Assembly (NCBI GenBank): GCA_027262695.1
Contig: GCA_027262695.1_4722.1
DNA: 64,000 nt
Strand: one strand, 5' to 3'
From: a phage
Shown: positions 1-61,926 of the stretch, one piece after another
How positions within the stretch are numbered: the stretch's first letter is position 1
How the letters are laid out: each line of letters begins with the position of its first letter
Notes under the pieces: model-generated
What the model saw: the letters and a program-made list of their open reading frames with translations, nothing else
What the model was told of the DNA's origin: nothing
The model's database searches: none
Made by a program: the position numbers and the translations under genes

Positions 1-452
1 TTTTTCCATCCTGTGTTTCTCTTGTTAGGCGTATGTATTAACGACGCCACCGTCTTTTCTGGATCATCCCATAATGCGCGACGAAAACTGGACACCACCA
101 TAACGGTAGGATAGATCTGTACGACCTCCCAACCGTAACGATGCGCATTCGTCGTGCGCCCAACATTGAACAAACACAATTGATTTAAGAAACAGAGCTG
201 CATCTTCGTAAACAACAGCGTGTCTTCACGTTTCACGTAACCGAGGATGTAGGCGTTCTCGAACGCTTCACGTGCTAAGACAGGACGGTTAAGATAACGT
301 AGCGACAACACCAACAACGCAGTGATACGCAACGGATCTTCGGGTCCTTTTAAATCATTCAGCTCGTTCTGCAACCAATCCGGAATCGCCACCGTTAGGC
401 GATAGGTGTCTGTTCCACGGTCAACCACATTTAATGTTGAAAAAGGCAACAT
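1..452 (-). CDS. hypothetical protein, 3' end truncated by window edge (begins MLPFSTLNVVDRG)
   Basis: Manual minus-strand translation stays open from the ATG at 452..450 to position 1; AAGGAA RBS about 10 nt upstream; not in the ORF track because no stop lies inside the window. Confidence 0.45.
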   Translation of the reverse strand, partial: MLPFSTLNVVDRGTDTYRLTVAIPDWLQNELNDLKGPEDPLRITALLVLSLRYLNRPVLAREAFENAYILGYVKREDTLLFTKMQLCFLNQLCLFNVGRTTNAHRYGWEVVQIYPTVMVVSSFRRALWDDPEKTVASLIHTPNKRNTGWK

Positions 453-1044
453 ACCCGTGAATTCCTTCTAACTCGAGGTCGTTCTCGTCGGTTTTCGGTA
501 AAAGTCCGTTAGCTGCCAGCATCCTTGTCATCGCGCCATCGAAGCACGGGAAGATAAGGTTAATAGTTTCATTAATCGCATCAACGTAGCTATACACCGC
601 TTCGAAGTAATCGCCGTCATGATCGATACTCACCAGATCTTGACATAGGTCTTCGGCAATCGTTTCATATACCGGCGGATACCACGAATGAAACGGTCGC
701 TGCATACGTAACGACCAATACTCATACGTCGTATACTGAAGCACGTCATAGGCTGATACGTTAATGCAGTCAAAGAAAGCATACGTGTCCATGTGTTGGT
801 ACAACATCGCCAACACGGTTTCCAAACACACAGCTATCCGCACGCCATCATCTTTCCCGTTAAGGAAATTCGGTTTCTGCCGGTAACGCACGAATGCCGA
901 TAGCCTTGATTGTACTATTCCACCACCAACCATAATGTCATACTCGTATCTAACGTGAAATTGAAATGCCACCAATCTTCCACGCGTGGAATCCAGGTGC
1001 GGAGGATCTGATGAACCTCGCTTCGCATCACGGACAACCGACAA
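421..1044 (-). CDS. hypothetical protein (start uncertain, possibly internal Met near 933)
   Basis: ORF track; N-terminal ~37 aa look like out-of-frame read-through of the upstream gene, the remainder has balanced composition. Confidence 0.4.
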   Translation of the reverse strand: MSVVRDAKRGSSDPPHLDSTRGRLVAFQFHVRYEYDIMVGGGIVQSRLSAFVRYRQKPNFLNGKDDGVRIAVCLETVLAMLYQHMDTYAFFDCINVSAYDVLQYTTYEYWSLRMQRPFHSWYPPVYETIAEDLCQDLVSIDHDGDYFEAVYSYVDAINETINLIFPCFDGAMTRMLAANGLLPKTDENDLELEGIHGYVAFFNIKCG

Positions 1045-1472
1045 CGGAAATCAAACTTCTCATCACGGCCGTAGTCTTCATGCAGGAAAACTTCATCCAA
1101 AACAAACTCAAGTTGTGTATCGACATCACGACCCGAGATATTTCGTTTGTACAGATAAAGTTCAATCGTGTCATAAAGCAACGTATGGATATCGTAATTG
1201 CCATTCGGTGAGAAATAAGGTAAGCGCTCATCGAACATCAAAAACAGATATTCACTGTAGTTTAAGAACGGGATGATGTACCGACGTCCTGTCTGTGGTG
1301 CGCGAATATGTATCGAAACCTGACCTGGACGCGGAATCGCCGACGGTTTAGCATCGTCTCTCTGAAATTGCTCTAAAGATCGCAACAAAGGTGGCCGCAT
1401 TGTAACTCTCCAACGCCCAATTGTAAGGCCCTTCCAACATATGTTCCCATACGTGAATAAACTCACTACCAA
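915..1472 (-). CDS. hypothetical protein (start uncertain)
   Basis: ORF track; overlaps both neighbours out of frame; only the C-terminal ~120 aa look protein-like. Confidence 0.35.
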   Translation of the reverse strand: MVVSLFTYGNICWKGLTIGRWRVTMRPPLLRSLEQFQRDDAKPSAIPRPGQVSIHIRAPQTGRRYIIPFLNYSEYLFLMFDERLPYFSPNGNYDIHTLLYDTIELYLYKRNISGRDVDTQLEFVLDEVFLHEDYGRDEKFDFRCRLSVMRSEVHQILRTWIPRVEDWWHFNFTLDTSMTLWLVVE

Positions 1473-1977
1473 AAACCGGTTCTAACGTCATCGTAAGATG
1501 CGTAAGTTCAGAAGCTGCAGCGTGATACGCGTCCACGTGTCTTTCCATCGAAGGTTCGTCTTCGTTGAAAATCCGCTCGGTATCACCAGCGCATTCAATA
1601 AGTTCGGTAATGAGATCGATCCAGGTTTCGTGGCATGTCAGCGTTTCCTGTTCTCGACTTTGTATGCCGATGTCGGCGTGTACGCTGGACTCGAACCGGT
1701 CGAAAAGGACCCGAAGAACGTGCACCTTGTCGATGTATTTCACCGTTATCCAGGAAAGCGGTTGCCATCGACTCAGCATCCATCCGGTGCTCGGGAACCC
1801 CAAACTCATATAGTACGGGTTGCACGGGGCCAAGGACGGAACGGCGTTGTTTGTAGCGTTCCTTAACGGCGAGGCCTTGTTTAACATAAATGGGTTCATT
1901 GGCGAGTTCTGCGGCTTTTCGTTTTGCGTGGGCCAATCGAAGTTCTTCCAATTGTCCAAGCCATTCAAATTGTTCAT
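1348..1977 (-). CDS. hypothetical protein (start uncertain; may be a frameshifted continuation of 1595..2572)
   Basis: ORF track; N-terminal ~60 aa are low-complexity N/P-rich (alternate frame of the upstream gene), the rest is protein-like. Confidence 0.35.
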   Translation of the reverse strand: MNNLNGLDNWKNFDWPTQNEKPQNSPMNPFMLNKASPLRNATNNAVPSLAPCNPYYMSLGFPSTGWMLSRWQPLSWITVKYIDKVHVLRVLFDRFESSVHADIGIQSREQETLTCHETWIDLITELIECAGDTERIFNEDEPSMERHVDAYHAAASELTHLTMTLEPVFGSEFIHVWEHMLEGPYNWALESYNAATFVAIFRAISERRC

Positions 1978-2572
1978 CTGTTAGCTCCTGGGGACGTTCA
2001 ACAACCACGCCCGATGGGCAGACATTGATCGTAATGTTAATTGATGGCATCGCCATCACGCGAGGATGACTGTTGCGCATCCGAACAACGTGTTGACCTG
2101 CATTCTTACGATCGACATGAAATTCTGTTTCCTTAAAGTCAAAGGCTTGTACAGGAACAGGTTTCCTTTTACGTTTCGGAACGCGGCCAAGATCGACGAT
2201 GAAAATGTAATCACAAACACGCTCGACCCCATAAACACGATTTTCAGACCAACTCTTACCGAATACATTCGGATGGTAATACGACAAATACTCGGTTACC
2301 ATTCCCTGGACAAGATCGAAGTCTTCTCGAAATTCAGGTTGGTACCAAATCGGACCGAGGATTTCTGCAAACGCTTCATGTCGATAGCGGCAATCATGCC
2401 GTGTCCAGGGCATTCTCTGATTAAGATCGAAATCCACCAACAATTCGGTTAATTGCAGTTTTGCCTTCGGAGAAAGCTGGCGTTGATGATGCAAACTCAG
2501 GCAATCGATAAGCGGTAACGAAACCCACGACGCTAACGTATACAAATCGATCCTGGCTAATCTCTTGGTCAT
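1595..2572 (-). CDS. hypothetical protein
   Basis: ORF track, 325 aa; first ~250 aa protein-like, C-terminal ~80 aa Arg-rich and possibly out-of-frame read-through. Confidence 0.45.
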   Translation of the reverse strand: MTKRLARIDLYTLASWVSLPLIDCLSLHHQRQLSPKAKLQLTELLVDFDLNQRMPWTRHDCRYRHEAFAEILGPIWYQPEFREDFDLVQGMVTEYLSYYHPNVFGKSWSENRVYGVERVCDYIFIVDLGRVPKRKRKPVPVQAFDFKETEFHVDRKNAGQHVVRMRNSHPRVMAMPSINITINVCPSGVVVERPQELTDEQFEWLGQLEELRLAHAKRKAAELANEPIYVKQGLAVKERYKQRRSVLGPVQPVLYEFGVPEHRMDAESMATAFLDNGEIHRQGARSSGPFRPVRVQRTRRHRHTKSRTGNADMPRNLDRSHYRTY

Positions 2573-2663
2573 ACTCTTTTCCTAAGTCCCCATTGTTTAT
2601 ACACACGATATCTGGGAATAGTTAAAATATACGGCGTAAAACGAAACAGGAGAGTTTCTCGCG

Positions 2664-2984
2664 CTATTTTCTTCCTCTTTTGATACAACCGATACCCCTT
2701 TCATTTAAAGCCCCCCAGGCGCGGTTTATTTCATCTTCTGTTGCTCGCGTATCTCGCGGAACCACCATCACGCAGTCTTCTATCGGCCAATGCGTCGGTC
2801 GAGGATCAGCAAATAAATCGTCCCACTCAAACGTCCATTTCCTCTTCGAACGGTTATAGTAAAGCGTGAGGTACGTACGCGTATACGCTGGGTAGCCTTG
2901 TAACACGGCGAAGTCTTTTCGATCCTGATGTGCTTGATTCCATTCGTTAAAACGGTTTCTTATTCTTGTCCACCATTTTCCCAT
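2664..2984 (-). CDS. hypothetical small protein
   Basis: ORF track, 106 aa; GGAGAG RBS upstream of the ATG; sits directly downstream of a terminator hairpin and TATGCCG box. Confidence 0.6.
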   Translation of the reverse strand: MGKWWTRIRNRFNEWNQAHQDRKDFAVLQGYPAYTRTYLTLYYNRSKRKWTFEWDDLFADPRPTHWPIEDCVMVVPRDTRATEDEINRAWGALNERGIGCIKRGRK

Positions 2985-3006
2985 AAACTCTCCTACACGG
3001 CATAAA

Positions 3007-3028
3007 AGCCTGCCCCGAAGGACAGGCT
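3007..3028 (-). terminator. rho-independent terminator hairpin with UUCG loop and T-run (minus strand)
   Basis: Minus strand reads AGCCTGTCC-TTCG-GGGCAGGCT followed by TTTTATGCCG; the same 31 nt recur at 61927 in the opposite orientation. Confidence 0.6.
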
Positions 3029-3041
3029 CATCATGATACTT

Positions 3042-3239
3042 TTAACCTTCCATCTTCAATGAGGGATGGTTGACGATATGTGCATGTTTGGTTGGGTCGT
3101 ACGACTGATAAGGGAAATAGCCATGCCATTGACGGCCTTGACATTTCGTACACAGGAACTGACCATCACGGCGTTGATGCTCGTAGGCCAGTTCAGTGCT
3201 ATCAACGTGACCGCAACGTTCGCAGATAAACAGCGACAT
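3042..3239 (-). CDS. small Cys-rich protein (CxxC...CxxC, zinc-ribbon-like)
   Basis: ORF track, 65 aa (MSLFICERCGH...CTKCQG); GGAG RBS; followed by the terminator at 3007. Confidence 0.55.
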   Translation of the reverse strand: MSLFICERCGHVDSTELAYEHQRRDGQFLCTKCQGRQWHGYFPYQSYDPTKHAHIVNHPSLKMEG

Positions 3240-3255
3240 AGCGCATCTCCATGGA

Positions 3256-4236
3256 TTAGAAAAGCAAGAAACCGCTGTTCTTCGCTTCCGCTACGGTTTC
3301 ATCACCCACCTTCGGTGCTTGTTGACGTGCGTTACGATGTTCAACAAAACGTTTTGCTTCGTCCGCGATTTGTTTGATAATACCCCCTAAACGATCGGTG
3401 CTTAATACGAACGATGTCGCTTCACGAATCGGGCTGCTTTCCGGCACAAAACCATCACAGCTATAAATAGCATTAACACCCATGACTTTCGTCGCGTCTT
3501 TCGGATACAACGTACAGAAAGCAATCGGGCTATCATGCTCTTTGGTCCACTCGTATCCCATGAACGTGTTCAATTCGGTGATGGTCGGTTCCAAACCGGT
3601 AACACGAGGATGGTTTAAGAAGTTCTCCAGATCAGCGCTATCCAAGCGACGGTTCTCACCAGAGAACAACACACAGAGTTGGCTGATAACGATCTGGACA
3701 TCCAGGTTAACGTCTTGCTCTGATTTTCCGTTTTCGCCATTCATGTGGTAGCTGACAATCACAGGACGTTTCAACCCTTCTGCGGCTGCCATCAGTCCTT
3801 TGAACGTACGGTCAGCATTGATGGTCTGACGTTCATCGTCAAAGGAGGCAACGATACAGCAAACAACACGCTCACCGCGTTCCAGCAGGTTAGCGACCAG
3901 CGCAGGGCCTGCAACGGAACCCGAACCACCGCTTAAGCTGAAGACGACGATGTTGAATTTACCTGGCGTATGCTTATTAAGAATACCTGGGATTTGTGAG
4001 CAGATCAGTTCAGCATTCTCATCGCGTTTCTTACCGGAACCATCAAGCTCGCGGCCTGCTGCATCTTTAAAGATGTAAATGTGATCATCGTCCAGTGCGC
4101 TATCACGTAGGTTAGCACGGCTGGTATCAACATACGTCATGCTGTGTAATCCTTTCGCGACTTCGCCTTCAAATGCTGAGCCGATTTCGCCACCACAACC
4201 ACCAACCGCCCAAATATGTACTTGGTTCTCTTGCAT
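3256..4236 (-). CDS. phuZ: tubulin/FtsZ-like GTPase, PhuZ-like phage tubulin
   Basis: 326 aa; N-terminal VGGCGGEIG resembles the tubulin GQCGNQIG loop and SGGSGSVAGP resembles the tubulin GGGTGSG signature; AGGAG RBS 6 nt upstream; size matches known PhuZ proteins. Confidence 0.65.
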   Translation of the reverse strand: MQENQVHIWAVGGCGGEIGSAFEGEVAKGLHSMTYVDTSRANLRDSALDDDHIYIFKDAAGRELDGSGKKRDENAELICSQIPGILNKHTPGKFNIVVFSLSGGSGSVAGPALVANLLERGERVVCCIVASFDDERQTINADRTFKGLMAAAEGLKRPVIVSYHMNGENGKSEQDVNLDVQIVISQLCVLFSGENRRLDSADLENFLNHPRVTGLEPTITELNTFMGYEWTKEHDSPIAFCTLYPKDATKVMGVNAIYSCDGFVPESSPIREATSFVLSTDRLGGIIKQIADEAKRFVEHRNARQQAPKVGDETVAEAKNSGFLLF

Positions 4237-4300
4237 GTGAACTCCTAACTTGATATGTATTTAACGCACAATGAATCTTTCTTTACTAAAGGGGTGACCC

Positions 4301-5143
4301 ATGGGTGCTATTGACTACAGTGTCGATCGTATCTGCCGTACAATACCGGCAGATATTCTACAGTATTGCTATATCGATCGTTACGATTGGCGTAACCGCT
4401 ATCCGCGTTCCGTTGAAGATATCATTACCGATTGGGTAATCCGTAAACGGGTTATCGGGGACATCGACATCTACGGGGGACTACAAACCGTTATCCCTCT
4501 TGATGATGCAGGCGTTACGATTGAAGAAGTCACCATTAACTGTTATGTTTTCCATATTCCGCTGGAAGCGACACAGGGACGTTACATCACGTCAGCCTTG
4601 TCGATTATCTCCGGAAGCGTGAATAACTACGGAATCAACTATAACGGTCAATGGGGGGCGTTCAACCAAACCCAGTTCCAACGTCAACTTTGCGGATGGA
4701 ACCCCGCAAGCAACGCATTGCAACAAGGAATGAATGCATTCGGTCCTGTGAACATCCTCAGTACCGCTAACGTTGACATCATCGCACCTAACACCATCAT
4801 GGTGAACAACGTCACACCGGTTCAATTCCCGTTGAGCTTACGCTGTTTCCTTGCCCATGATCCAGAACTAACCAACCTCAGCATGGAAGTCTGGAACGAC
4901 TTTTACAAGCTCTGTTTATACGCCACACAAAGTGACATCTATAACAGAACCGTTATTCGTCTCGATCGTGGTGTTACCGCACAAGGTCAAGAAGTCGGTG
5001 CATTCAAGGAATACATCGATCGCTTCGCTGATGCGGAAAACACCTACCAGGAATTCCTGAACGAGACGTGGGCAGGCGTTGCTGCATGGAACGACCCACA
5101 AACGAAACGTCGGGCAATACGTCTGCAAACCGGTTACTTCTAA
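4301..5143 (+). CDS. hypothetical protein
   Basis: ORF track, 280 aa; AGGGG RBS; transcribed divergently from the phuZ candidate. Confidence 0.6.
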   Translation: MGAIDYSVDRICRTIPADILQYCYIDRYDWRNRYPRSVEDIITDWVIRKRVIGDIDIYGGLQTVIPLDDAGVTIEEVTINCYVFHIPLEATQGRYITSALSIISGSVNNYGINYNGQWGAFNQTQFQRQLCGWNPASNALQQGMNAFGPVNILSTANVDIIAPNTIMVNNVTPVQFPLSLRCFLAHDPELTNLSMEVWNDFYKLCLYATQSDIYNRTVIRLDRGVTAQGQEVGAFKEYIDRFADAENTYQEFLNETWAGVAAWNDPQTKRRAIRLQTGYF

Positions 5144-5146
5144 AGA

Positions 5147-5668
5147 CTATGCCGCCTTTTCCAACAATGTTGGTTGAGGCGGTTGTTGTTTGAAAACCAC
5201 CATCATATCAGCAAACATCGCAGCCACAGTCCCTACGGACGTCGCTAACTGAATGCTCAATTCGACATCAGGTGGAAGACAATCAAAATGAACACCGTAT
5301 TGCGTATGTGTCTGTTCAACAACGATACGGGGAACGATCTTGCTCTTAACCGCATCGGTCATGAACAAACGTAAGAACGTTTCACCGTCTTCGCTATCCG
5401 TAAAGCGATACGCGTTACCAGAAAACTCGACGCTTGGCGTAACGATAAACTGCACGCGATCGTCAGTCGGATGGATATTTAGCCACCGTGCAACATCGTC
5501 CGTGTTAACGTTACGCATACTCAGCACGGTATACGCAAACAACGTATCATGGTGTTTAGAATAATGCAGTACATAAGCCGCATCTTTCTTTTTGTGAACC
5601 CCTTCATTGTATTCTATTGTCGTGTAGCCTGATTTATATAGCTTTACTTGCGGTTTCTCGCTCATCAT
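5147..5668 (-). CDS. hypothetical protein
   Basis: ORF 5147..5749 trimmed to the ATG that overlaps the upstream stop (ATGATGA). Confidence 0.5.
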   Translation of the reverse strand: MMSEKPQVKLYKSGYTTIEYNEGVHKKKDAAYVLHYSKHHDTLFAYTVLSMRNVNTDDVARWLNIHPTDDRVQFIVTPSVEFSGNAYRFTDSEDGETFLRLFMTDAVKSKIVPRIVVEQTHTQYGVHFDCLPPDVELSIQLATSVGTVAAMFADMMVVFKQQPPQPTLLEKAA

Positions 5669-5964
5669 AACAACCCTTCCCGTTTCATCGCAGAACGCAT
5701 ACTTGCGTAAAGCGCATTCTTCATTGCACCTGGACGTAACGGATAACAAATCTCATATCGACGTCCTTGTTTTACAGCGATCTTTCTTCCATTCAAAAAC
5801 AACGTTCCATTATCCAGCAAGAGCTCACCTTGCAATACCATGAGCCCTGCCTTAACATGCCGTCCTTCTTCTTTGGTTAACACTTTGTAGCCGTGTTTAT
5901 CCAATAACCACAACTCGTAAATACCGTGCGCAGCCTTTGGCGTTACTTTCTTTTTCGTCGTCAT
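5665..5964 (-). CDS. hypothetical protein
   Basis: ORF track, 99 aa; strong AAGGAGG RBS. Confidence 0.6.
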   Translation of the reverse strand: MTTKKKVTPKAAHGIYELWLLDKHGYKVLTKEEGRHVKAGLMVLQGELLLDNGTLFLNGRKIAVKQGRRYEICYPLRPGAMKNALYASMRSAMKREGLL

Positions 5965-5976
5965 GATCGATCCTCC

Positions 5977-6357
5977 TTAAACTCCTTGTCGGATCATCAC
6001 CAACCGGAGCATATTGTATTCCAACGTGGCGCTTTCTAATTCGAATTCATATCGATACCAGAAATTCGGCTCCAATTGGTTTACAATACAACAACGCACC
6101 TTCGTTTGCACCTTCCTTGACAGCTCACGTAAGAAACGGGTTACCTCCGGTTTGAAGTAATACGCCAAACCTAACTGATCGGAATAAAACAGGCCGCTAT
6201 CATTCGCAGCCTGCAGGATAACATATTCGACCATCAGATGACGTACATTCGGTTCAGGTACCGACGAACATAACGCAAGATCCAACACATCAACGATCGG
6301 ACCAACGTACACGGCAGCACGGTATTCACGAATAACATCAACGTTATCCATGGCCAC
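5977..6357 (-). CDS. hypothetical protein
   Basis: ORF track, 126 aa; AGGTGG RBS. Confidence 0.55.
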   Translation of the reverse strand: MAMDNVDVIREYRAAVYVGPIVDVLDLALCSSVPEPNVRHLMVEYVILQAANDSGLFYSDQLGLAYYFKPEVTRFLRELSRKVQTKVRCCIVNQLEPNFWYRYEFELESATLEYNMLRLVMIRQGV

Positions 6358-6364
6358 CTACTGA

Positions 6365-7189
6365 TTAGTTGTTGTTTTCCGATAAGCTGATATAGTTAAA
6401 CGTACGATCGCGTAAACAGGCATAGCGCGGTAATGCGCTAAGGATGATCATCTTCAGCTGCATCGCAAGCGATGTGCGTTCTTCATCGGTCGCATCATCC
6501 CCCCATTTACCCGGTTTAACCTGGATGGGTTCCTGAGGATCCTGCGGAAAGATAAAACTCAACAGCAGGTAATCCGTGCGGAATTCCCATACCTCCCGTC
6601 CATCGCTATTGGTTTCTTTACGCAACGTGAACGGCTGACGCTCCGTGGTAGGATCCAACATCAGTGGACGACCACGAACAACCTCAAGTTTACGTGGGCT
6701 GACGAACGTTGTTCGTTCTGGAAGATGCTTTTCAACCTCGTCGGTATCTAACAAGAACAAAATGATATCATCAAAATGCTCGGGTGCGAACGTGTGTATT
6801 GGCTCACCGTCGGTGTAGGAACAGATCGCCTGGAGTATGGGTGTTTTATCCGAGAAGCTCTGGCATGACCCGCGCGTGATCGGTAAGGTATTCCAAAGAT
6901 GTTCTGTAGACAACTCCACCGGCACCAACGGCTGATCATCGATGAACACCACGCAGGTCATCCCAACAGGAATATGTCCGTCGTTATTCGGTTCGAAGAC
7001 CAAGCGAAGTTTACCGGTGATCAATGCTAACTCATCCGGCAGTAAACGATTCGCTGAACGCGCCAAACGGAATCCGGTTGCTTGGTGATACGGTTCGGGT
7101 TTATAACCACGGACAATAAGGGAAACCTCCGCAAGTTCGATGCTTACGAAGGCGTTTTTGATGTCCTTATTGTTCATCGTTAACGTCAT
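6365..7189 (-). CDS. hypothetical protein
   Basis: ORF track, 274 aa. Confidence 0.55.
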   Translation of the reverse strand: MTLTMNNKDIKNAFVSIELAEVSLIVRGYKPEPYHQATGFRLARSANRLLPDELALITGKLRLVFEPNNDGHIPVGMTCVVFIDDQPLVPVELSTEHLWNTLPITRGSCQSFSDKTPILQAICSYTDGEPIHTFAPEHFDDIILFLLDTDEVEKHLPERTTFVSPRKLEVVRGRPLMLDPTTERQPFTLRKETNSDGREVWEFRTDYLLLSFIFPQDPQEPIQVKPGKWGDDATDEERTSLAMQLKMIILSALPRYACLRDRTFNYISLSENNN

Positions 7190-8204
7190 TGTTCATTTTC
7201 TCCGTTGCAACAAATCGTTCAAGTTCATTCAGTAAACGTGCTTTTAACGTCGCATCCACGTCTGGTGCATGTTTATCACGGTACCATTCTGTTCCGTTGT
7301 ACTGTAAACTTACATGCCATGTGCCTAATGGACTATCTTCTGCCGCTGCGATGAAGTTCTTAACACCGGTTTTGGTTGGATACTTCATGATCGGCACGGC
7401 TTTATCTGGATCCATCAGTGTAAGATCCTGGAAGTTATAATCCAGAAGCGTCAACATGCGTTGCTTGCGTAATAACACCCCGCATTGCAGGATGGTAAAA
7501 TCGATTCCCCAGAAACGAAGTTTACCTCCTACGCCTATTGGCGTATGCCCACGATAAACCGCAAGATAGATTTCCCCTTTATCGGTTTCTTTGTTGTAGC
7601 CTGCGATGAATGCCGCGGTGATCAACGGTTGATCGCCTTTCGCTAAAAAAGCGGGATGGCTACGATACAACCAATCGCTACGGATCAAATCGGTAACCTG
7701 ACCTAAACGTGCGGTTGGTACCATCGTTGATCCTAAAGTTTCATCAACAGGAATCTGATAATACTCGAACAGAACCCCATCGATTTCTTCGGTTGCATAA
7801 GGCGTACGCTCTGGATCGTTAAGCACCTTACGAAGTTTCTCATCGATTTCGTTTACACGATCGTCATGCGCTTTCTCACGGCTTCCAACAACGAAAGCAA
7901 CCAGATTGCGTACACTTACGAAGACGTCATCTTTTTCGGTCTCGGTAAGATCTTCCGCATCAGGCATCGTTGTCCAGTGCAAAGGACCTTCTACCACCTT
8001 AAGCCACTTATCTTCACGTTCAGGATAAACAAACGGTTTATGAACAGGAACATCCGTGTGTTGAACACGTAACAGTAAATTGCATAACGGAGGTAATGTT
8101 TTCTCTAACGGTGGAACAATACCTGATGTAACAGCAATGACATAACGGTTAAGAACAAGAGAAGCGGAATAGGTAATGTTATCTAATCCTGGTAATTGAT
8201 CCAT
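7167..8204 (-). CDS. hypothetical protein
   Basis: ORF track, 345 aa; AAGGA RBS; preceded by an AT-rich intergenic region. Confidence 0.6.
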   Translation of the reverse strand: MDQLPGLDNITYSASLVLNRYVIAVTSGIVPPLEKTLPPLCNLLLRVQHTDVPVHKPFVYPEREDKWLKVVEGPLHWTTMPDAEDLTETEKDDVFVSVRNLVAFVVGSREKAHDDRVNEIDEKLRKVLNDPERTPYATEEIDGVLFEYYQIPVDETLGSTMVPTARLGQVTDLIRSDWLYRSHPAFLAKGDQPLITAAFIAGYNKETDKGEIYLAVYRGHTPIGVGGKLRFWGIDFTILQCGVLLRKQRMLTLLDYNFQDLTLMDPDKAVPIMKYPTKTGVKNFIAAAEDSPLGTWHVSLQYNGTEWYRDKHAPDVDATLKARLLNELERFVATEKMNNDVNDEQ

Positions 8205-8420
8205 GATAGAAATCCTTATTGGTTTTGATCTGTTGTTTAATTAACATATTAAGTTTTAAAGAGGTTATGTTTTACGTCATATTCGATGTTTGTATTGATG
8301 AATTAGAATACTTGTATTTTTAAGCGAGTATAATAATAGTAATAAACCTAAATTAATCTCTGTTACTTACTGTTCTATCTAAAGATAGTAAACTGATATA
8401 ATGCTCCCCACCACCCCATT
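8205..8420 (-). promoter_or_regulatory. AT-rich intergenic region, putative promoter for the 7167..8204 operon
   Basis: Long AT-rich stretch with several TATAAT-like boxes between two minus-strand genes. Confidence 0.3.
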
Positions 8421-8432
8421 CTCCCAAGTAAT

Positions 8433-8488
8433 ACTGGCCTACCGGCCCTCTCCTTTTTAGGGAGAGAGGTAAGCAACCAGTATTGCTC
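8433..8488. other. nested stem-loop element (outer 11-bp stem with G-U wobble, inner CTCTCC/GGAGAG hairpin)
   Basis: AGTAATACTGG...CCAGTATTGCT enclose CCCTCTCC-TTTTTA-GGGAGAGAGG; lies downstream of gene 8542..8892. Confidence 0.3.
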
Positions 8489-8541
8489 AAATGAATAAGC
8501 AAAGCTGTAGAGATTTACTGCCGCTTTACCTCTCTTATCTA

Positions 8542-29550: not shown

Positions 29551-30651
29551 TTATTTGGCTTCGTTAAAATAAATATCAACGGCACGTTCCGTTGCGTAGA
29601 GAAGACCCAGATTCACGGTCCCTACCACTTCCGGTGAACCGATGATACGGTTAGCGATACTGGTGCCACTGAAGATAGCATCAAGGGTGTGCCCGTCTTC
29701 GGTTTTGTTCACACCATGACCCACGGAAGAGACAACGGATTTTGCCTGTGCTGCGAAGGTACCTTTATCCCCCATTCCCGCACCCAGGTCGTAACGCATG
29801 AAAATACGGATGGCGATCTGGTTCTCGCCTAACGGATTACCGTCTATTCTCACGTTACTGTTGTTGATGCGTCCCGTTGTTGCTTCGTTGAGTTTCAGTT
29901 CCTTAACGCGTTTAGCTCGCGCTTTATCCGCTTCACCCACAAGTGCTGCCATGGTTTCACTCATGTCTTCAATCTGGGCACGATACAACACATCGATCTG
30001 TACGACTTCACCATGCACGTCAGCCCGTGGGTTATACTGACTCATACGGCGTAACGCTTCAACCGCTTCCTGACTTTCATCGCTCAGATCGGTCGCAATC
30101 GGTTCTTCCAGTGTTGCCAGGATCGTCCGAGGTTCAACATGATCGCCGATTTTCACCAAACCACGAATGTTGAGATGAGCGTCAACAATGAGCGTACGAC
30201 TCTTAATCGATGGTGTTACGAGACGATCAGCGAGATTGTCGAAGATATACGAACTGTCCTCGTGCGTTTCTGGAATATCCAAAATACCAACCAAAGACAG
30301 AACGCCTGCGCGCCAAACCACCTGACCTGGGTTCCACCAATCCCGTTTGAAATAAAGACGATGGAATACCACTACATCCTGATCCTTAACGCGATCACCA
30401 ACTTTATAATCGGTAATGAGATCGTGAGGATAATACTTACCTGGTCCTTTCCCGATTATCGTACCGAGTTGGAAAACCTCTTCCCCTAATTCTGGATCGT
30501 CGTATTGTATCGTAAGCGCTGTTTTGGTGACCTTCTTCACAACACCATCGCCTTGAGCAGCTGCTGCGAAGAGTTTACCAACACGATGCGCGATAACAGT
30601 CTCACCACCTGTACGCCATGGTTGTACGTCGTAACCTTCAGCAGCTATCAT
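29551..30651 (-). CDS. RNA polymerase beta-subunit segment, 3' exon (GDK catalytic-region motif)
   Basis: 366 aa ORF; ...YDLGAGMGDKGTFAAQAKSVVS aligns to the E. coli rpoB GDKMAGRHGNKGVIS region, and IGDHVEPRTILATL / PRADVHGEVVQIDVLY align to upstream rpoB segments; the frame stays open upstream to a stop at 30796..30798, so the exon probably starts between 30652 and 30795. Confidence 0.6.
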   Translation of the reverse strand: MIAAEGYDVQPWRTGGETVIAHRVGKLFAAAAQGDGVVKKVTKTALTIQYDDPELGEEVFQLGTIIGKGPGKYYPHDLITDYKVGDRVKDQDVVVFHRLYFKRDWWNPGQVVWRAGVLSLVGILDIPETHEDSSYIFDNLADRLVTPSIKSRTLIVDAHLNIRGLVKIGDHVEPRTILATLEEPIATDLSDESQEAVEALRRMSQYNPRADVHGEVVQIDVLYRAQIEDMSETMAALVGEADKARAKRVKELKLNEATTGRINNSNVRIDGNPLGENQIAIRIFMRYDLGAGMGDKGTFAAQAKSVVSSVGHGVNKTEDGHTLDAIFSGTSIANRIIGSPEVVGTVNLGLLYATERAVDIYFNEAK

Positions 30652-31148
30652 GCGGTTGTGCTGTATACCTATAAATACGAGACGCTTTGGCGAAATCCAG
30701 CAAAATACAATTACTGTGCGTCTAGATTGTTCAGATAAGGTCGTTAATCTTATCCCGGTGGTGATGATAGGTGCATCACCAACCCGCTTGCGCTCTCACG
30801 CAAGAGCAGACTATATCACATCTCGTTTCAAACGGTGCTTCTTCAGCGCCTCAACGAGAGTTCACTTCTTCCCAGCGCATCCAGCGCCATTCTCTTATCC
30901 AAGGAGAATGCCTCACTCGAGGGGTACAGGGGGATGAATCCCTTAGTCGTTGAACCGTCACCCTAGAACGTTTCACAACGATCCTTAGGCGATTGGCTGC
31001 GGATTGTCCTTAAGCTATTATCTGTTTTATAACCATACCGTCTTTCTTTTCAGAATCCGTTTTGGTCGATAACAGCGATGGATGTCTTCGCAATTCAGTG
31101 AATCTCATCTACATGTCGCCATATAGACGGACCCTGCTATTAAAAGCG
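30652..31148 (-). ncRNA. group I self-splicing intron (boundaries approximate) in the RNAP beta gene
   Basis: Minus strand carries an R-like element GGTTCAACGACTAAGGGATT (30956..30937) and an S-like element TGATATAGTCT (30818..30808) that can form P7 (GACTA/TAGTC), followed by a P9-like hairpin (30806..30786); no ORF >60 aa in the correct orientation. Confidence 0.55.
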
Positions 31149-34100
31149 TTAATCATCTCTGTCGGCAGCAGGTACTGCAAGTGCCGATGTACTCATTATT
31201 GACGAGCTACCATCCGTTTTCTCGTCGTAAGGTTTTGTTTCACCGTATACAGACACGATGTTTGCGTTAGGTGCAAGATAAGCAGAGATACCTACATCGC
31301 CACTGTCCTTCGTACCTTCAGATACCACACCGATGTCTGACTTGTCGTATTCACGATCGCGTGCGCGTCGAAGCGATGTTTTCGAACGACCCCCGATACC
31401 GGTCATCGTTGCTTCTTCACCCTGCTTGATATCCAACATCGGGTTGGTTTCATCGATGACAATAGAAGCACTGTCGTCAAGGATTTGGTTCCAAACGCTC
31501 ACCGGACTGATTGAGATCTTCTGTCGGTTGCCTTGGCTGCTGTTCTCGTTTTGACGAATAGCACCAACCAGATCCTTATACACCAACTCAGCGAACTTAT
31601 CGTACGTTTTGAAGCGCTGGTAGTTCACATCGTTCGTGTTCGGTGCCCAATCATCCAGAAGCAGTTCAACAGCACGTAATAACAACATGGCGAAATCAGT
31701 CGGTTCACCCATGTTCTGCAATAATGTACGACTTACCGGGTCGACGAAAAGACGCTCCATGAGTTCAAGTTCGCGAAGATGACGAACCTTAAGACCTGCA
31801 CCATCGACAACGTTAAAATAGATATCCCGATTGTCAAAAGCGCCGCGAGCGTAACCGATGTAATTACGGTATTCGTTAAATCCACCCAACAACAATGTCG
31901 TCATTCGATCATCTTTACTGAAGATCAAACTTTCATCGTCGAAGCTTACCGCGAATTCATCCGATGCTAAGCCCATACGAGAACCACGAACTACCGTACG
32001 GTAGTTCGCTTTAAGATGTTCTAATAACGGAGTAAGTCCGCCTAGGTAACTTAGCACAACGCCAACCGGGATACGTACGCCCATGAACTCAAGGTCAGCG
32101 GCTTCGATAGGCATCTTCGCGGCATTGATACCGAAGAAATCAGGGAACGTTCCAACCGGCGTTGGGGTTTGATTCGGTTCGTAAACGTACAACTGATTCT
32201 GATTATCCACCGCCAGGAATTCACCGTTGGTGTTTTTGGCGAACGTTAAGAATCCACCCGCCAGCTGTTCGGTGAACAAATCTGCGCCGATATGTTCTGG
32301 CAACGTTTTGATATCGAGGCGTATGTCCCAATCCGCAAATTGAATTTGGGTGTAGTTACGCGCAAGCACAGCGAAGTAATACGGAACTTTGACAGCCGGA
32401 TCAAAGACGTTACCACGTTTTAAGGTGGTTAGCGGGGAGGTTTTATCGTAATACATCGCTGTGAGTTGACGTGTTAACCAACGACCAGCATTATTCACGA
32501 CACGCTCTGAACGTTTAACAAACACCTTACCGTAGGCGGTACTCAACGCAACTTCGGATGATGATACCTTTCTGATAGGTTTATCAACACGTTGTTTACG
32601 CATCCGGTATTTAATACCGTTAACGACATAAATACCGTCCTTACGAACCTTCGGTAACATCACCGGGAACGTCGTTGGAACACCACCCACCGGAGCCAGC
32701 TTGATCGTGATGACCTGGTAATCACCCATCACGTCAACAACATCTTCAACTTTATATCCGGTAACAGGATAGCCTGCTTGTTGCACTGCCACAACGGCCG
32801 CTGCGATGTCCTTTTGCATCACGTGTTCAACGTAATGTTTATCCCACACCGCAAGCGTCGATTTACATAGGCTCTTATCGACGATAACATCCGCTTCCGG
32901 CATAACCTTTGCTGGCGCTAATTTCGCGGCTTTTGGTTTAACCTCAACGTATTCAGCAAGCGTTAGTCCAGAACCGTCAGGTGCTTCAATTTCATGAATC
33001 GCGTCAGCGTTACGCATCGCGGCTTTATATTGAACGCCGCTTAATTGACCCGCATCCGCGAGGTCGCTCGCACGTACCAACACCGCATCGGATAACGACT
33101 GAATATATTCACCGTGCGTTTTCGGCAACGTTGCCGCATCGAAGACATCATCTTTTTCTTCCGGCACGTCGTCGTTGACGACCTCAAAGAGATCATCGGT
33201 GATGTCTTGATCTTCGTCCGGTTGAAAATCGGGCTGAACTTCAACGCCCGGGACTTCACGAACATCTTCGAACGCACGCTCAACAACCGCGTTCCATGCT
33301 TCAGCGTCGTCATCCTCATCCGATCCTCCGATCAACTCGCTTTCCAGTTCATCGGGGTCAAGAACGGTATCGAGATCCTCACCGTTAGGAAGCACGACAT
33401 CACGTTCATCGTACTCCGCATCGGGACTGTCTGCGAGAATATCACGCTCCTGACGAAGAACCTGCTCCTCTTCTTGTTTCTGTTCTTCTTCGTTGGCGCT
33501 CTGCGACCACAGACGGGTTACCGCCATCATCCAACGACGCTGGAATGTTTCAAGCGTTGTCTTATCAAGTTCCTCGCCTTCCTTCGCCAAACCCGAACGC
33601 CATTCTTCCATTAAACCAAGATTCAGGGTAAAGAAATAGACGCCGTCCGTAAATACAACGTTAAGCTTATCCAGCGAAGCACGATCCAATGACGCCATCG
33701 TACTGTTCTCACGATCGACACCTAACCAGCGGAAGAAGTCAAAGAACGACAGCTCCTCTGAGGTGGCAAAATTCATGAGGTTATTACGGGTTGGGGCTTG
33801 TTGTGTCGTACGCATCAACGATATCTTCGGTAACGTCGACGGGATACGGAATAACAAGAACTGCTGACGGTCGCTTTGCTTGGCGATCTCGTTTGCTTGC
33901 GTCCAAATCGTTTTACGCACGTTGAACCACTCATCATACCAACGTGTTAGCGTCGGACGATAGATGTACATGTGGTTAAGATGCGCATAGTTAGCCACGA
34001 TCTGGGCGTTGATGTTCTTCTCAACCTTGCTAAGATCGGTGACCAAACGAAAACGACGATGCGATGCACGGTAATCCAGTTTCGCACGCGGTAGCTGAAA

Positions 34101-34358
34101 TCGCTGATCGCGTCGAGGCGCGCCTTGCTTGGTTGCGAGGTCATCCGCGAACGATATCCAAAGCTGTGCACTTTCTTTGCTCAGCATGTATTCGTTTTCA
34201 GGAGGACCTATTAACGAAGGATCGGTTGCTGTGTAATGATAAACAGCATAACGCGGCAGCTGCAAAAGCTGCACCAAACGCAATCTAGGTGATAATAACT
34301 CTTGATAACGTCGTACACCGAATTGTCTGTAGTAATCAAGGTATTTAAGTTTTGCCAT
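31149..34358 (-). CDS. RNA polymerase beta-like subunit, N-terminal and middle part (5' exon), with a long N-terminal extension
   Basis: 1069 aa; C-terminal region NPMLDIKQGEEATMTGIGGRSK...VSVYGETKPY aligns to the rpoB fork segment [26 protein letters not shown]...LSVYAQTNEY; own ATG with a GGAG RBS; acidic low-complexity insert. Confidence 0.65.
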   Translation of the reverse strand: MAKLKYLDYYRQFGVRRYQELLSPRLRLVQLLQLPRYAVYHYTATDPSLIGPPENEYMLSKESAQLWISFADDLATKQGAPRRDQRFQLPRAKLDYRASHRRFRLVTDLSKVEKNINAQIVANYAHLNHMYIYRPTLTRWYDEWFNVRKTIWTQANEIAKQSDRQQFLLFRIPSTLPKISLMRTTQQAPTRNNLMNFATSEELSFFDFFRWLGVDRENSTMASLDRASLDKLNVVFTDGVYFFTLNLGLMEEWRSGLAKEGEELDKTTLETFQRRWMMAVTRLWSQSANEEEQKQEEEQVLRQERDILADSPDAEYDERDVVLPNGEDLDTVLDPDELESELIGGSDEDDDAEAWNAVVERAFEDVREVPGVEVQPDFQPDEDQDITDDLFEVVNDDVPEEKDDVFDAATLPKTHGEYIQSLSDAVLVRASDLADAGQLSGVQYKAAMRNADAIHEIEAPDGSGLTLAEYVEVKPKAAKLAPAKVMPEADVIVDKSLCKSTLAVWDKHYVEHVMQKDIAAAVVAVQQAGYPVTGYKVEDVVDVMGDYQVITIKLAPVGGVPTTFPVMLPKVRKDGIYVVNGIKYRMRKQRVDKPIRKVSSSEVALSTAYGKVFVKRSERVVNNAGRWLTRQLTAMYYDKTSPLTTLKRGNVFDPAVKVPYYFAVLARNYTQIQFADWDIRLDIKTLPEHIGADLFTEQLAGGFLTFAKNTNGEFLAVDNQNQLYVYEPNQTPTPVGTFPDFFGINAAKMPIEAADLEFMGVRIPVGVVLSYLGGLTPLLEHLKANYRTVVRGSRMGLASDEFAVSFDDESLIFSKDDRMTTLLLGGFNEYRNYIGYARGAFDNRDIYFNVVDGAGLKVRHLRELELMERLFVDPVSRTLLQNMGEPTDFAMLLLRAVELLLDDWAPNTNDVNYQRFKTYDKFAELVYKDLVGAIRQNENSSQGNRQKISISPVSVWNQILDDSASIVIDETNPMLDIKQGEEATMTGIGGRSKTSLRRARDREYDKSDIGVVSEGTKDSGDVGISAYLAPNANIVSVYGETKPYDEKTDGSSSIMSTSALAVPAADRDD

Positions 34359-34548: not shown

Positions 34549-35198
34549 TTCGCCTCAGTTCGCTACGCTGAGACCGCCTGCATGGATACGTACATGACAG
34601 GCTGCTTGCACTTTCATGCAAGAGGAGACTATATCAAACCGGCAGCTTCACCTTCTCGATCGTATCGAGAATGCGGTGCTGAAGTATTCTTCAGCAGCAC
34701 CTGCTACGGTAACCTACACTTCGAAGACGCTTGTCCTCTACAGGGTGGTAAATCCCTTAGTCGTTGAACCTGCGTTGTTTCCCATTCTTGGTTGCAAGAA
34801 TGCCGTATTACTACGCAACAACCAGGCTGCTGATTGCCCATTGTCTCGCACCTTAGCACCGCTTACGCGGCTTTTCTTTCAGCCTAAGCCTCTTACGGAG
34901 GTAGTGCATCTCAACTGTTGTTTCTGCCTTTCGGCACCCCATGGGTCGTTGAGCTTTAGGGGTTCCCAGCAATTCGTAGGTTTTTCAAGCACTCCCTTTC
35001 GGGAATACCGGACAACTTCCCTTGAAAAAAGTCTTTATTTTTCAAGGACTTATCCCCGCCGAGTCCCTGGAGGTACGGGCTCGGAATGCAAACCGTTTCT
35101 ACGAACGATGCTTTTTGTTTCCAATCAGGGTATTCCCATGCGATATATCGTTCGTCAGTAATCGGTTCCCAATTACTATCAAGTTCTGTCTTGGGAGA
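34549..35198 (-). ncRNA. group I self-splicing intron (boundaries approximate) in the RNAP beta-prime gene
   Basis: Minus strand carries R-like GGTTCAACGACTAAGGGATT (34770..34751), S-like TGATATAGTCT (34636..34626) and a P9-like hairpin (34622..34605) that shows a compensatory pair change relative to the other intron. Confidence 0.55.
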
Positions 35199-36518
35199 AG
35201 CGTTAACGGTTGTACGCGCATAACAGGTTAACGGAATGACTGACTGCATGCCCGATACCGGATAACGTGTTACCATCGCAGCCAGGTTGTTCCAGTATTT
35301 ATATCCTGCGATATAGATAAGCTCAGTATAAGTAATGGGGTGAACATCCGCACCAGGTTTGTTAAGCATCTCTGGCGGTATTTCACTCATACCGCGGAAA
35401 AGTCGGAATGAATCGTTGTTTACATAAACCAAACAGAGATAACGACCATTCACCATGATAGGTTCGTTACGTACGCCTGGATCGCTTAGCGTGTTCAATA
35501 AACGTTCGATACCATCCCAAGTAGTAAAGTCATCGATGGTGTCAGGATCAAGTACGACTCGTTCACGTTCCATCGTTTCGGTATCGATAAGCTCAACCTC
35601 GGTAACATCACGGACGAAGATCTCTTGCAAAATACCAGTACGTAATGCGTGTTGCGTTATCGGAAGGGCTGCTTTGCTCATCTGGTATAGACCAAGCTGT
35701 ACAGATGTACATGACGTTTGGTTTGGAGAACCGAGAACCTCCGTTGTGGGGTTAATTGCCGAAATAACGTTACGGGTTGAGTTCCAAACACGACGTGAAC
35801 CGAACTTACCTTGGAAGATCCCTTTCTTACCCTGGAACATATCCAACAGCAATGCGTAGATATCATTGAAGGTTCTTTGCAGGCTCCAGCGCTGTCCGTC
35901 GTAGACAGGATCGTTGTAGTCCTTTAATCCATCGGGAACGGTATTGGAGATAGCAAGGAAACGACGGTAGAGCTCCGTGATTTCTTGTTCGCTTTCATAC
36001 CCGCCTTCCTTTACTTCTATTTCACGAAGACCAGCAGGTAACACCAATAAATGACGGGTCATCGCTTTGAACATGTTTTCTTCGACAACTTTAATACGCA
36101 GTTCTCGTTGCGCTGAACCTGTTGAAACGAACTTGATCTCCGCAACGTGTTGTGCGAAGAAACCGTAGCCGGTTTGTCCCGTTAATGCGTCAGCAGCAAC
36201 GAAATCACGCTGTTCTGGATCCCATCGTGCATAAGCTTTACCGGACATGATATCGCCATAAAGGTGTTTCAATCGAATAAGGCGATCGTAAATGACCGGA
36301 TGCAAGATTTCCACTTTACACTCGATGACCGCAAAGCGGCGATCACGATCTTCACTACCCGCACTCCCAAAGATGGTGTATGAATAAAAACCATCATCAT
36401 GGAAATTACCCGTACTCGGGTCACGGATACTCATGCTGGTAATCTTAGGAAGGAAACGCAACTGCTGCTTATCAAGATGCAGTATACTGATATTGAACGG
36501 CTCTCTGACTTTAGCCAT
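35199..36518 (-). CDS. RNA polymerase beta-prime N-terminal subunit, 5' exon (ORF reads through into the intron to 34956)
   Basis: ORF 34956..36551; start trimmed to Met 12 (AAGGAG RBS); LPAGLREI...GGYESEQEITELYRRF resembles rpoC [44 protein letters not shown] resembles GKRVDYSGRSVI; homology ends near ...ARTTVNA (about 35199). Confidence 0.6.
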
Positions 36519-36691
36519 GGATGCACTCCTTAAATAAGGCGGCGGTATCATCTGAACACATGAGAGACGTAATGGGTGAAGCCATCACCCATCGCTTCCC
36601 TGCTTGATGCGAGGAAGGTATTAAATTACGTACCTGTCCGATGGCCTCGAACAGGCGATGTATGAAGCTATGCTTCAATTTGGAGGTATAC

Positions 36692-39600
36692 ATGGTAGAT
36701 AAAACCCGTGTTGAGGGTGATGATAATTGGGATAACTGGGATGAGGACTTCTCCCTGGATCTCGATTTTGATGAACCCAAAGACGACCGTAAGCCCATAA
36801 CCCGTTATGCAATAGGTGTCGCCAAAGGGGCTGCTGAAGATCTTACTTCCTACGAAAGAATGAAGGAGATCGCCAGAAACGCATTACCTAAGGGTTATAG
36901 CGACGGTATGGATCTTATCGATTCCGCCGTCGGATCCACGAAGGAACTATACAATGAAGCCGTTCGTGACATTCTTCCGAAGGTACAAAGCTCAAAACGG
37001 TTAGCCGCACAACTGACGAAAAAATACCGTGCGAGCATGCCCGATTTCTCGAAGAAAATTATCGAGCGTTGGGAGCAAGAAGCCAAGGAAGAAGACGAAC
37101 GTAAACAGGCGGAAGCCGATCTTAAACAACGCATGGCGAATGCAGGTGATGAAGAAATCGCTCGCAAGGTCGCTGAGGCGTTAGGAGAAGCGGCTAACCA
37201 GAACGCGGATCAGTTTGCAGAACAACAAGCAAAAGAAAGTATCCGTGACGATATTGCTGATAAACGTTATAATGTCACCAACAAACAGATGAGCGCGATG
37301 CAGGAAGGCATCGCCAAGATGGTTGGTTTCAATAACGAATTCGCCGCACGCTATATGCGTAAAAGCCTGGAACTAAAATACCGTTCTTTGGCGATACAAC
37401 GCGCGAGTTTCGATCAGCATAAAAAGTTAGCCGAAGTCTATATCGGTTTATTACAGAACATCCAAAAGAACACGGCTTTACCGGATGCGGCTAAAGCAAA
37501 AATGTCGGAAGAATTTCGTCGCACAGCGTACCAACGTTTCTTTGGTAACGCATTGAATGCGATGAGTTCTTTCGAGAACCGTTTCTTTGCTGATGTTAAG
37601 AAAAACCTTGCAACCAATGCGTTGGGTGCGTTGAAAGGTGTTGTGTCTGGCGCACACGACGCCCTCTCCGGTTTAAACGAAGCACGCGACTCGATGTCCA
37701 TGATGGACGGTATGGGGTCAGAAGGCGATATTAAGGAAATGCAAGGGAAGATGCTGGGTCAGTTGATCGGCTCAACCGTTGCACCATGGATGGCGAATAA
37801 AGGCATGACGGCATTGCGGGATTTAGCAAAACGTCATCCTAACGCTAAATTCGCCAACGCGTTAAAAGCGGTCGATCAAGGCGGTGAAGCTGCTGCTTAT
37901 ACAACGCGTAACGTTGGGAAACTGCTGCAAGAAGATCTTCGTAAAAACGAATTCAACCTCAGCGATCCCTTCTACAAACAGTTCCTGCGTGGGGCTGGAC
38001 GTTGGGCCTTCAATCTGGACGGTGGTCGTAACTTCCGTGTGATGAACGACACCGCGGAGACGTTAGCTGAACAAACATCTTTCGATGGTTTAACCTATCG
38101 TAGCATCAACGAGGTCATTCCCGGATTTCTTGCTCGTATACTGAAAAGCACTGAAGGTATCCGTACCGGTGAAAATGATCCTGATTACGAGGTCTATGAT
38201 GGCATCAGCGGGCAATTCGTTGCTCAACGTACCCGCGAACAAGGTGTAACCGACACCCTCTTTAACAAACGTTCGTTCGGTTATTACGCCGGTCGTTTTA
38301 ATGAAGTTATCTCGGTTATCGATCCCGATAAACAGCTGTCAGAAAAGGCAAGGAAAGCCTTGGCTAAACAGTTAGCACGCGACAGCGATGCGAACATGGC
38401 TTTCGATCCTGCTCGATATACCGACGAAAGTAACTTTGATCGCAGCATCGATAGAGACGCCATTAAAGAACTTTCTGCGTATTTCAAAGATCGTTACGGC
38501 ATTCGTGACGATGTTGATGATGAAGGTAACCGTCAACAGGTTATTGAAAACCGTGGGCAGTACTACACGGAACGTAACCGCGCTGATCTGCGGTACGGTA
38601 ATCTGAAATCCTTGCAGCCGGATATCCAACGCAACCTTAACCTTCTGAAACGTACCGGTGATGTTCAATACCTGGAACGCATCGGGATCGTAACAAGAAA
38701 CAGCGATGGCAGTTATTCGGTTAATCACGATCGTTACTTCTCTGAAATCGATCAATACATCGACCGACCGGAATACGCTGACCGTGGTGATGTTAACACG
38801 CGACTCAGTGCCCAACAGACCAGGGCGTTGGCGTTAGGCTATCGTGACGACGTTGCGTCAAACGCTGACGTACAAAATCGTGCGTTACCAAACCTCGATC
38901 GAACAACGGTCGGAACGGTAAACATCGATGAGAACATCGGATACGAGAAATGGTGGAACGATGCGGGTGTTATCACCACATCGCTTGAAGACCAAAATCG
39001 AGCATGGCAAGAACTCTATCTTGAAGCGCTTCAGGAAGCTTCGCATCAACGTGAAACGATGCTGGAACTTCTGAAAGCGATCTCAGAAAAAGAATGGGGT
39101 GGTAGCGGCGTTGGCCGCCAGGGCGAACCTGGCGGTGAAGAAAGTGATGATCGCTCTATGTTAGGTCGGATCTCCGACCTAACACTAGGTAAAGCCGGTA
39201 GCTATGCCTGGAAAGGTGCAAAAGGAGCTGCCAAGTTCGGATGGAAATGGGGTCGAAAAGCGGCGACATGGGGCGCAAAACGTACGTGGGGAAGCTTCGT
39301 AAACTCAGCGCGTCGAATTATCAACTTCAACCGTTTTGTGTTCGGTGCGTTATCCAAGGTCGATCAAGTTCCGTTTGACATTTACGTTAAAGGTGAAGAT
39401 CGTCCACGTATCTTAGCTGCAAAACTTCGTCAAGGTCTGTATTTCGATGAAGCCACCGGCAAAGCCGTCAAACGGATGAAGGATATTAAAGGTCCGTTAG
39501 TTGATGCTGACGGCAACATCGTCATCAGCGCTGAAGATATCGAGAAGGGATTGATTACGCGCGCTGGACGTGCCTTCGAAAACTCCGGTTTGAAAGCATG

Positions 39601-58418: not shown

Positions 58419-58450
58419 CCCTCCTCCAACCCGTAAGGGAAGGAGGAGGG
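58419..58450 (+). terminator. terminator hairpin, exact copy of the 45571..45602 element, followed by CTATGCCGTAAAG
   Basis: Identical 32-nt CCCTCCTCCAACCCGTAAGGGAAGGAGGAGGG directly after the stop of gene 57786..58412. Confidence 0.5.
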
Positions 58451-58481
58451 CTATGCCGTAAAGCAAAAAAAAAAAATGATA

Positions 58482-58514
58482 GTCACGAGCCCTCCAATGA
58501 AGGAGAGCCGTGAC
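58482..58514 (-). terminator. rho-independent terminator for minus-strand gene 58522..59223
   Basis: Minus strand: GTCACGGCTCTCC...GGAGGGCTCGTGAC hairpin followed by a T13 run. Confidence 0.55.
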
Positions 58515-58521
58515 CGTCAGT

Positions 58522-59223: not shown

Positions 59224-59237
59224 CAGAAGAATCCTTC

Positions 59238-60190: not shown

Positions 60191-60291
60191 TGATATCTCC
60201 TCTTCATACGCATCTTGAAGATTAGTTAAAATCAACAAAAGAAAAAACGATATAAAGCAAGGTCCTCTGATATCAGAGGACCTTGGATCAA

Positions 60292-60948: not shown

Positions 60949-61098
60949 GATTGAAATCTCGCTGGCTTACTTCACTTAAGTAATATAGCCGTGAAAAATG
61001 TTGGATTAAGTTAAATACCGCAACCGCAGCTAATTTTATAGGCTTTTAGCCTAAACCAATCATCTTCGGAATCATCATCTTTGAAACAGGAATCTATC

Positions 61099-61920: not shown

Positions 61921-61926
61921 TCATCA

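Follow-up and report, generated by a model that had tools for sequence, protein, structure and literature searches.

A PhuZ tubulin gene in a Goslar-like jumbo phage genome

The open reading frame at 3256..4236 on the minus strand of the 64,000-nt stretch of phage DNA that we analysed (the window) encodes PhuZ, a tubulin/FtsZ-superfamily GTPase of the phage PhuZ clade. We consider it almost certain that the phage is a Goslar-like jumbo phage of Enterobacteriaceae which forms a nucleus and encodes chimallin, and that this protein is its tubulin-like GTPase. The coding sequence, taken from the ORF list, starts with ATG and comprises 326 codons and a stop, and its assignment draws on PHROG 4733, PDB entry 9pm9, synteny with Goslar and Foldseek. 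Nothing about the gene is new, as its protein sequence, its lineage, and the structure and cell biology of a 98%-identical orthologue are all already public, and the main value of the identification is a confident, correct annotation. The name PhuZ can safely replace ‘hypothetical protein’ in the many identical entries from E. coli, Shigella and Salmonella assemblies, and the contigs that carry them are recognisable as genomes of nucleus-forming jumbo phages and not as bacterial DNA.

Sequence matches, fold and conserved residues of PhuZ

An earlier note, written from the letters of the window, had proposed a tubulin/FtsZ-like PhuZ candidate from a 326-aa protein with the motifs VGGCGGEIG and GGSGS. 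Both motifs are present in the ORF at 3256-4236, and PHROG 4733, PDB 9pm9 and Foldseek all agree with the proposal. The PHROG 4733 profile, ‘tubulin PhuZ’, matched with an E value of 2.1e-68, residues 1-323 of the protein aligning with positions 1-321 of 323 in the profile. Among PDB sequences the top matches were 9pm9 and 9pmk (E 6.5e-217, ~98% identity), and the comparison with characterised PhuZ proteins that the note had suggested recovered phiKZ PhuZ (3zbp) at E 2.6e-29 and 201phi2-1 PhuZ (3r4v, 3rb8 and 3j5v) at E ~6e-15. A tblastn search with PhuZ over 50,697 phage records matched 176, of which Goslar showed 97.9% identity and all others less than 60%; the matched records are nearly all jumbo phages, and many of them are annotated ‘tubulin PhuZ’. 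The sole Pfam match was the Tubulin/FtsZ GTPase domain PF00091 over residues 9-151 (30.2 bits, E 6.9e-07), which is significant but falls below the gathering cut-off of 33 bits, so that superfamily membership was set by structure. PF22334 (TubZ_C_2) was not matched by the window protein, and 16 of 23 relatives do match it.

An alignment of 23 homologues with 24-59% identity served as the basis for conservation counts, a profile and a structure model. Searched against the PDB, the profile retrieved all solved PhuZ chains first and at full length (E 1e-66 to 4e-58), with positions 2-326 aligned to phiKZ PhuZ (E 1e-66) and positions 1-326 to 201phi2-1 PhuZ (E 2e-58); TubZ followed at 8e-11, CetZ at 8e-08 and FtsZ at 2e-04. 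The AlphaFold (AF2) model built from the same alignment reached a pLDDT of 88.6 and a pTM of 0.87, and was used in place of a single-sequence model with a pLDDT of only 38.8. In a Foldseek comparison of this model with the PDB, which the earlier note had also suggested, PhuZ structures ranked first and no other GTPase family gave the best match. With TM-scores normalised by query length, the model scored 0.92 against 9pm9 (released 2025-12-24 under the title ‘PhuZ Tubulin from phage Goslar’), 0.84 against the phiKZ protofilament 3zbq and 0.81 against 201phi2-1 PhuZ-GDP (3r4v). Entries for phage c-st TubZ, for CetZ and for many FtsZ proteins (4xcq, 3v3t, 3zid, 4b46 and FtsZ entries) scored 0.52-0.73. 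The C-terminal tail is a low-confidence region of the model, as would be expected of a segment that becomes ordered only within the polymer.

The T1 glycine loop, VGGCGGEIG (residues 11-19; codons at 4180..4206, minus strand), contains G12, G13 and G15, which are nearly invariant in the 23 homologues, and it aligns with GGAGFRIG of phiKZ PhuZ. The T4 tubulin-signature loop, GGSGS (residues 103-107; codons at 3916..3930, minus strand), sits inside SLSGGSGSVAGP and is the equivalent of the GGGTGSG signature; G103, G104, G106 and S107 are invariant and S105 nearly so, and the loop aligns with GGASGS of phiKZ PhuZ and GGGSGS of 201phi2-1 PhuZ. The T7 loop carries the acidic pair of D199-S-A-D202 (codons at 3631..3642, minus strand), in which both aspartates are invariant and D202 is the putative GTP-hydrolysis residue. 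Altogether the residues invariant over the 23 homologues (M1, D37, T38, S39, N42, G66, G68, R71, G103, G104, G106, S107, V108, N140, Y163, N166, D199, D202 and G262) span the T1 and T4 nucleotide-binding loops and the T7 loop, and in the C-terminal tail G322 and the hydrophobic end are nearly invariant.

The closest characterised relative is Goslar PhuZ (HOV27_gp234 or Goslar_00201, called ‘gp201’ in Birkholz et al. 2022; PDB 9pm9 and 9pmk), which is likewise 326 aa long, is 97.9% identical and shares the T1, T4 and T7 motifs of the window protein, D202 included. Annotated as ‘tubulin PhuZ’ in RefSeq, HOV27_gp234 is syntenic with the window gene, with the same neighbourhood and orientation. 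The two phuZ genes differ at 105 of 981 nt (10.7%), and these differences amount to 90 synonymous and only 7 non-synonymous codons, which points to strong purifying selection on an intact gene. The substitutions, given with the window residue first and the Goslar residue second, are A47T, D49G, I182V, H234N, N255S, F297Y and V298I; all seven are conservative and none lies on an invariant column, and a functional difference between the two proteins is not expected. PhuZ of phiKZ (gp39; 3zbp and 3zbq) and of 201phi2-1 (gp59; 3r4v and 3j5v) belong to the same clade, can be aligned from end to end, C-terminal helix and tail included, and have the same GTP-binding and T7 residues, although they are only ~22-31% identical to the window protein. 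Like the Goslar type, they are encoded by jumbo phages that also encode chimallin.

Genome context and the phuZ locus

Collinearity with Goslar extends through the whole window, first along positions 177,581-237,303 of the Goslar record and then along 17-5,548, at 86-93% nucleotide identity. The usual species line lies at 95% nucleotide identity, and by this measure the window genome is a different Goslar-like lineage. Phage contigs of ~244 kb from Enterobacteriaceae assemblies are closer, being ~99% identical to the window, and at least 36 contigs, up to 248 kb long and drawn from assemblies of E. coli O157, Shigella and Salmonella, encode an identical 326-aa PhuZ. In entries filed under E. 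coli O157, Shigella sonnei, Shigella flexneri and Salmonella, on contigs of 240-248 kb, this identical protein is labelled ‘hypothetical protein’, probably because its PF00091 score lies just below the threshold. The 240-248-kb contigs in bacterial assemblies are complete jumbo-phage genomes; genomes recovered from bacterial assemblies have enlarged Goslarvirus from 1 to 237 genomes in 38 species (PMC12768965). The part of the window at 58442-63971 runs unbroken, at 93% identity, past the end of the Goslar record (237,303) and on into its start (17-5,548), which implies that the record ends are no fixed physical boundary relative to this genome and that the sequence is permuted or circularly assembled.

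The earlier note had placed PhuZ in a nucleus-forming, chimallivirus-like phage, a reading that is supported, and had recognised no chimallin in the window, which is correct. A tblastn search of the window with Goslar chimallin returned only noise (E ≥ 6), and the Goslar nuclear shell protein, HOV27_gp246, which lies 8 kb from phuZ in that genome, maps outside the window, to the left of position 1. Four contigs with the identical PhuZ (L003-L006), which match the first 14 kb of the window at 96-99% identity, each encode a 632-aa protein matching PF25677 (Chimallin_Phikzvirus), 4.65-6.55 kb beyond the left edge of the window. The distance between chimallin and phuZ is 7.9 kb in contigs ~99% identical to the window, and, on the strength of these near-identical contigs and of collinearity with Goslar, the window genome would be expected to form a phage nucleus. 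Two further elements of context named by the note concern the RNA polymerase, to which we return below, and a giant virion protein of ~2240 aa; the latter is borne out by the 2240-aa ORF at 36641-43363, which matches phrog_3201, is the counterpart of Goslar HOV27_gp204 and contains an endolysin/lysozyme-type domain at residues 1855-2063. Other window genes encode a large terminase, a UvsX-like recombinase, an RNase H-type ribonuclease and virion proteins, and the window contains no tRNA genes.

Within the locus, the phuZ ATG is preceded at a distance of 5 nt by a Shine-Dalgarno ribosome-binding site, AGGAG, read from the sequence at 4242..4246 on the minus strand. An ORF of 65 aa (3042..3239, minus strand) starts 16 nt past the phuZ stop in the same orientation and ahead of a terminator-like hairpin, and is probably co-transcribed with phuZ. 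Its product has two CxxC pairs and is zinc-ribbon-like, with no PHROG match and only sub-threshold matches to Pfam zinc ribbons. The ORF was taken from the ORF list and supported by synteny with Goslar HOV27_gp235, where its position is kept, and it is also called as a gene in L003-L006. The unit of phuZ and the 65-aa ORF is closed by a GC-rich hairpin followed by a T-run, resembling an intrinsic terminator and read from the sequence as AGCCTGTCC-TTCG-GGGCAGGCT and then TTTAT (3002..3028, minus strand). It was absent from the output of a simple consensus terminator scan, and it coincides with the mapped position of the terminator annotated in Goslar at 180588-180607. A scan for sigma-70 promoters and terminators around phuZ found no more sites than in shuffled controls, and is uninformative for this gene because chimalliviruses transcribe with their own, phage-encoded RNA polymerases.

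The divergent neighbour of phuZ encodes a 280-aa DUF7484 protein (4301-5143, plus strand; phrog_3179, E 6e-87). This is a chimallivirus-wide gene, found in 249 phage records as against 176 for PhuZ, and in a few records it is annotated as a virion protein. It often adjoins phuZ, also in distant phages (Erwinia phages Deimos-Minion and Desertfox, Vibrio phage BONAISHI and Klebsiella phage FBKp24), and lies 2-15 kb from phuZ in phiKZ, Phabio, RisingSun and PS1. We considered whether DUF7484 might be a partner of PhuZ; this is unlikely, given that Asesino and SPFM (Seoulvirus) have the gene but no PhuZ and that in other phages the distance to phuZ is 10-15 kb. Next to it, the ~213 nt at 5142-5354 gave no megablast match to the otherwise 96-99% identical contigs L003-L006. 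This segment lies at the 3′ end of a minus-strand ORF at 5147-5749, for which L003-L006 have a 166-aa gene and the mechanical ORF here has 200 aa, and it looks like a small local replacement or a hypervariable segment.

Proposed role of PhuZ and alternative readings

What we observed for the window protein itself is its identity and fold, the conservation of catalytic and nucleotide-binding residues, purifying selection and its genomic context; polymerisation, vortex formation and rotation of the nucleus may be transferred from Goslar PhuZ on the strength of 98% identity. The T1 and T4 glycine loops, whose residues are conserved here, would bind GTP, and monomers would then polymerise head to tail as the C-terminal tail of each docks on the neighbouring subunit, a contact with the next subunit that is known from the structures of 201phi2-1 and phiKZ PhuZ. 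The T7-loop residue D202 is predicted to complete the GTPase site of the neighbour and so to make the filaments dynamic. These filaments would form a vortex-like array around the chimallin-bounded nucleus, push on the cell envelope and rotate the nucleus, and this rotation is believed to distribute the docking of capsids and the packaging of DNA across the nucleus surface.

Experiments have demonstrated GTP-dependent polymerisation into dynamic filaments that move or rotate the phage nucleus only for Goslar PhuZ (PMC9891218) and for PhuZ of Pseudomonas phages (PMC12908238). During Goslar infection a vortex of GFP-PhuZ was seen, and the D202A substitution abolished it and reduced nucleus rotation from 97% to 29% of cells; Birkholz et al. 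found that PhuZ(D202A) formed hyperstable filaments, at a much lower expression level, and acted as a dominant negative (PMC9891218). The earlier note had pointed to phiKZ-like phages that build a spindle, and here its view needs refinement: the protein is indeed the PhuZ of a nucleus-forming phage, but of the Goslar type, which, unlike phiKZ and 201phi2-1 PhuZ, does not position the nucleus and forms a vortex-like array that rotates it instead of a bipolar spindle that centres it (PMC9891218; PMC12908238).

The seven substitutions relative to Goslar, or lineage-specific partners, might alter the architecture or role of the filaments, for example in relation to the carrier-like persistence that has been suggested for jumbo phages in bacterial isolate assemblies. 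We regard such a change as very unlikely, and nothing here points to it, since all seven substitutions are conservative and lie off the invariant columns.

Still less probable, in our judgement, is that the protein is a TubZ-type DNA-segregation tubulin that, together with TubR and a tubC centromere, partitions a plasmid-like prophage. TubZ (Clostridium phage c-st and Bacillus pXO1/pBtoxis), CetZ and FtsZ do have the GTPase fold and nucleotide-binding loops in common with PhuZ, at TM-scores of 0.55-0.73 and Foldseek E values of ~1e-13 to 1e-11, and TubZ structures rank next after PhuZ (4xcq and 3v3t; profile E ~1e-10, Foldseek TM 0.66-0.67). The phiKZ protein in entry 3zbq was itself named ‘TubZ’ by its depositors, and the recurrence of Goslar-like genomes in bacterial isolate assemblies could suggest persistence in the host (PMC12768965). 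Against this, the matches to PhuZ extend over the full length and are at least 50 orders of magnitude stronger than those to TubZ, and TubZ, CetZ and FtsZ are only 10-16% identical to the window protein and have other C-terminal regions. None of the partners of TubZ and FtsZ (TubR/tubC and divisome proteins) is found at the window locus, where the neighbours of phuZ (DUF7484, the 65-aa zinc-ribbon-like ORF and unknowns) include no TubR-like family, and scans for tandem repeats in 1-8500 and for direct repeats in 2500-5400, either of which could serve as a centromere, found none. The Goslar orthologue, moreover, has been shown to act on the phage nucleus (PMC9891218). We therefore reject a TubZ/TubR/tubC partition system, as the TubZ similarity is far weaker and both iterons or tandem repeats and a TubR-like neighbour are lacking, and retain the identification as PhuZ.

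That the gene is a decaying or functionally drifting tubulin remnant, which has perhaps lost the ability to form dynamic filaments, seems the most improbable reading, and the signature of selection together with the invariant residues that are kept leads us to reject it: repeated losses have removed PhuZ, which is non-essential and non-core, from about a third of chimalliviruses (PMC12908238; PMC12768965), and the Pfam Tubulin score here is under the gathering threshold, but the ORF is intact and as long as that of Goslar, synonymous codon differences outnumber non-synonymous ones 90 to 7, all invariant family residues are kept (D199, D202 and the T1 and T4 glycines among them), the identical protein recurs across the contigs described above, and the low Pfam score is common to the functional, 98%-identical Goslar PhuZ.

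Group I introns in the RNA polymerase genes

The earlier note had also cited a split multisubunit RNA polymerase as context for PhuZ. Its beta-type ORFs are confirmed at 31149-34358 (phrog_3148, E 1e-289) and 34956-36551 (phrog_2986, E 2e-162), but part of the apparent splitting is due to two group I introns on the minus strand and not to separate subunit genes. The first of these, at 34605-35037 (Rfam, 58.4 bits), is common to the window and Goslar, where it corresponds to the ncRNA at 211817-212245. The second (Rfam 30787-31153, 51 bits), an intron of 461 nt at ~30691-31151, splits an RNA polymerase beta-type gene into the ORFs at 31149-34358 and 29551-30651, and Goslar gp207 is uninterrupted at this point. 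Removing the 461 nt in silico yields a gapless protein of 1448 aa that is 96.5% identical to the Goslar RNA polymerase subunit gp207. The last nucleotide is U in the 5′ exon and G in the intron, whose length leaves no room for an endonuclease ORF.

At the first intron the two genomes differ in content. The 81 nt at window 35014-35094 stand opposite Goslar 212226-213840, a 1.6-kb segment that contains gp206. This protein of 490 aa, which has an HNH_3 domain and a sub-threshold match to NUMOD1, is probably a homing endonuclease. With only 81 nt opposite the Goslar segment, the window lineage carries a version of the intron that lacks the endonuclease ORF. The contrast between this ORF-less intron and the Goslar version is a possible case of intron-endonuclease competition among Goslar-like phages; for PhiPA3 and phiKZ, work cited in PMC12908238 is described there as presenting polymorphism of introns and endonucleases in chimallivirus RNA polymerase genes as a weapon between co-infecting phages.
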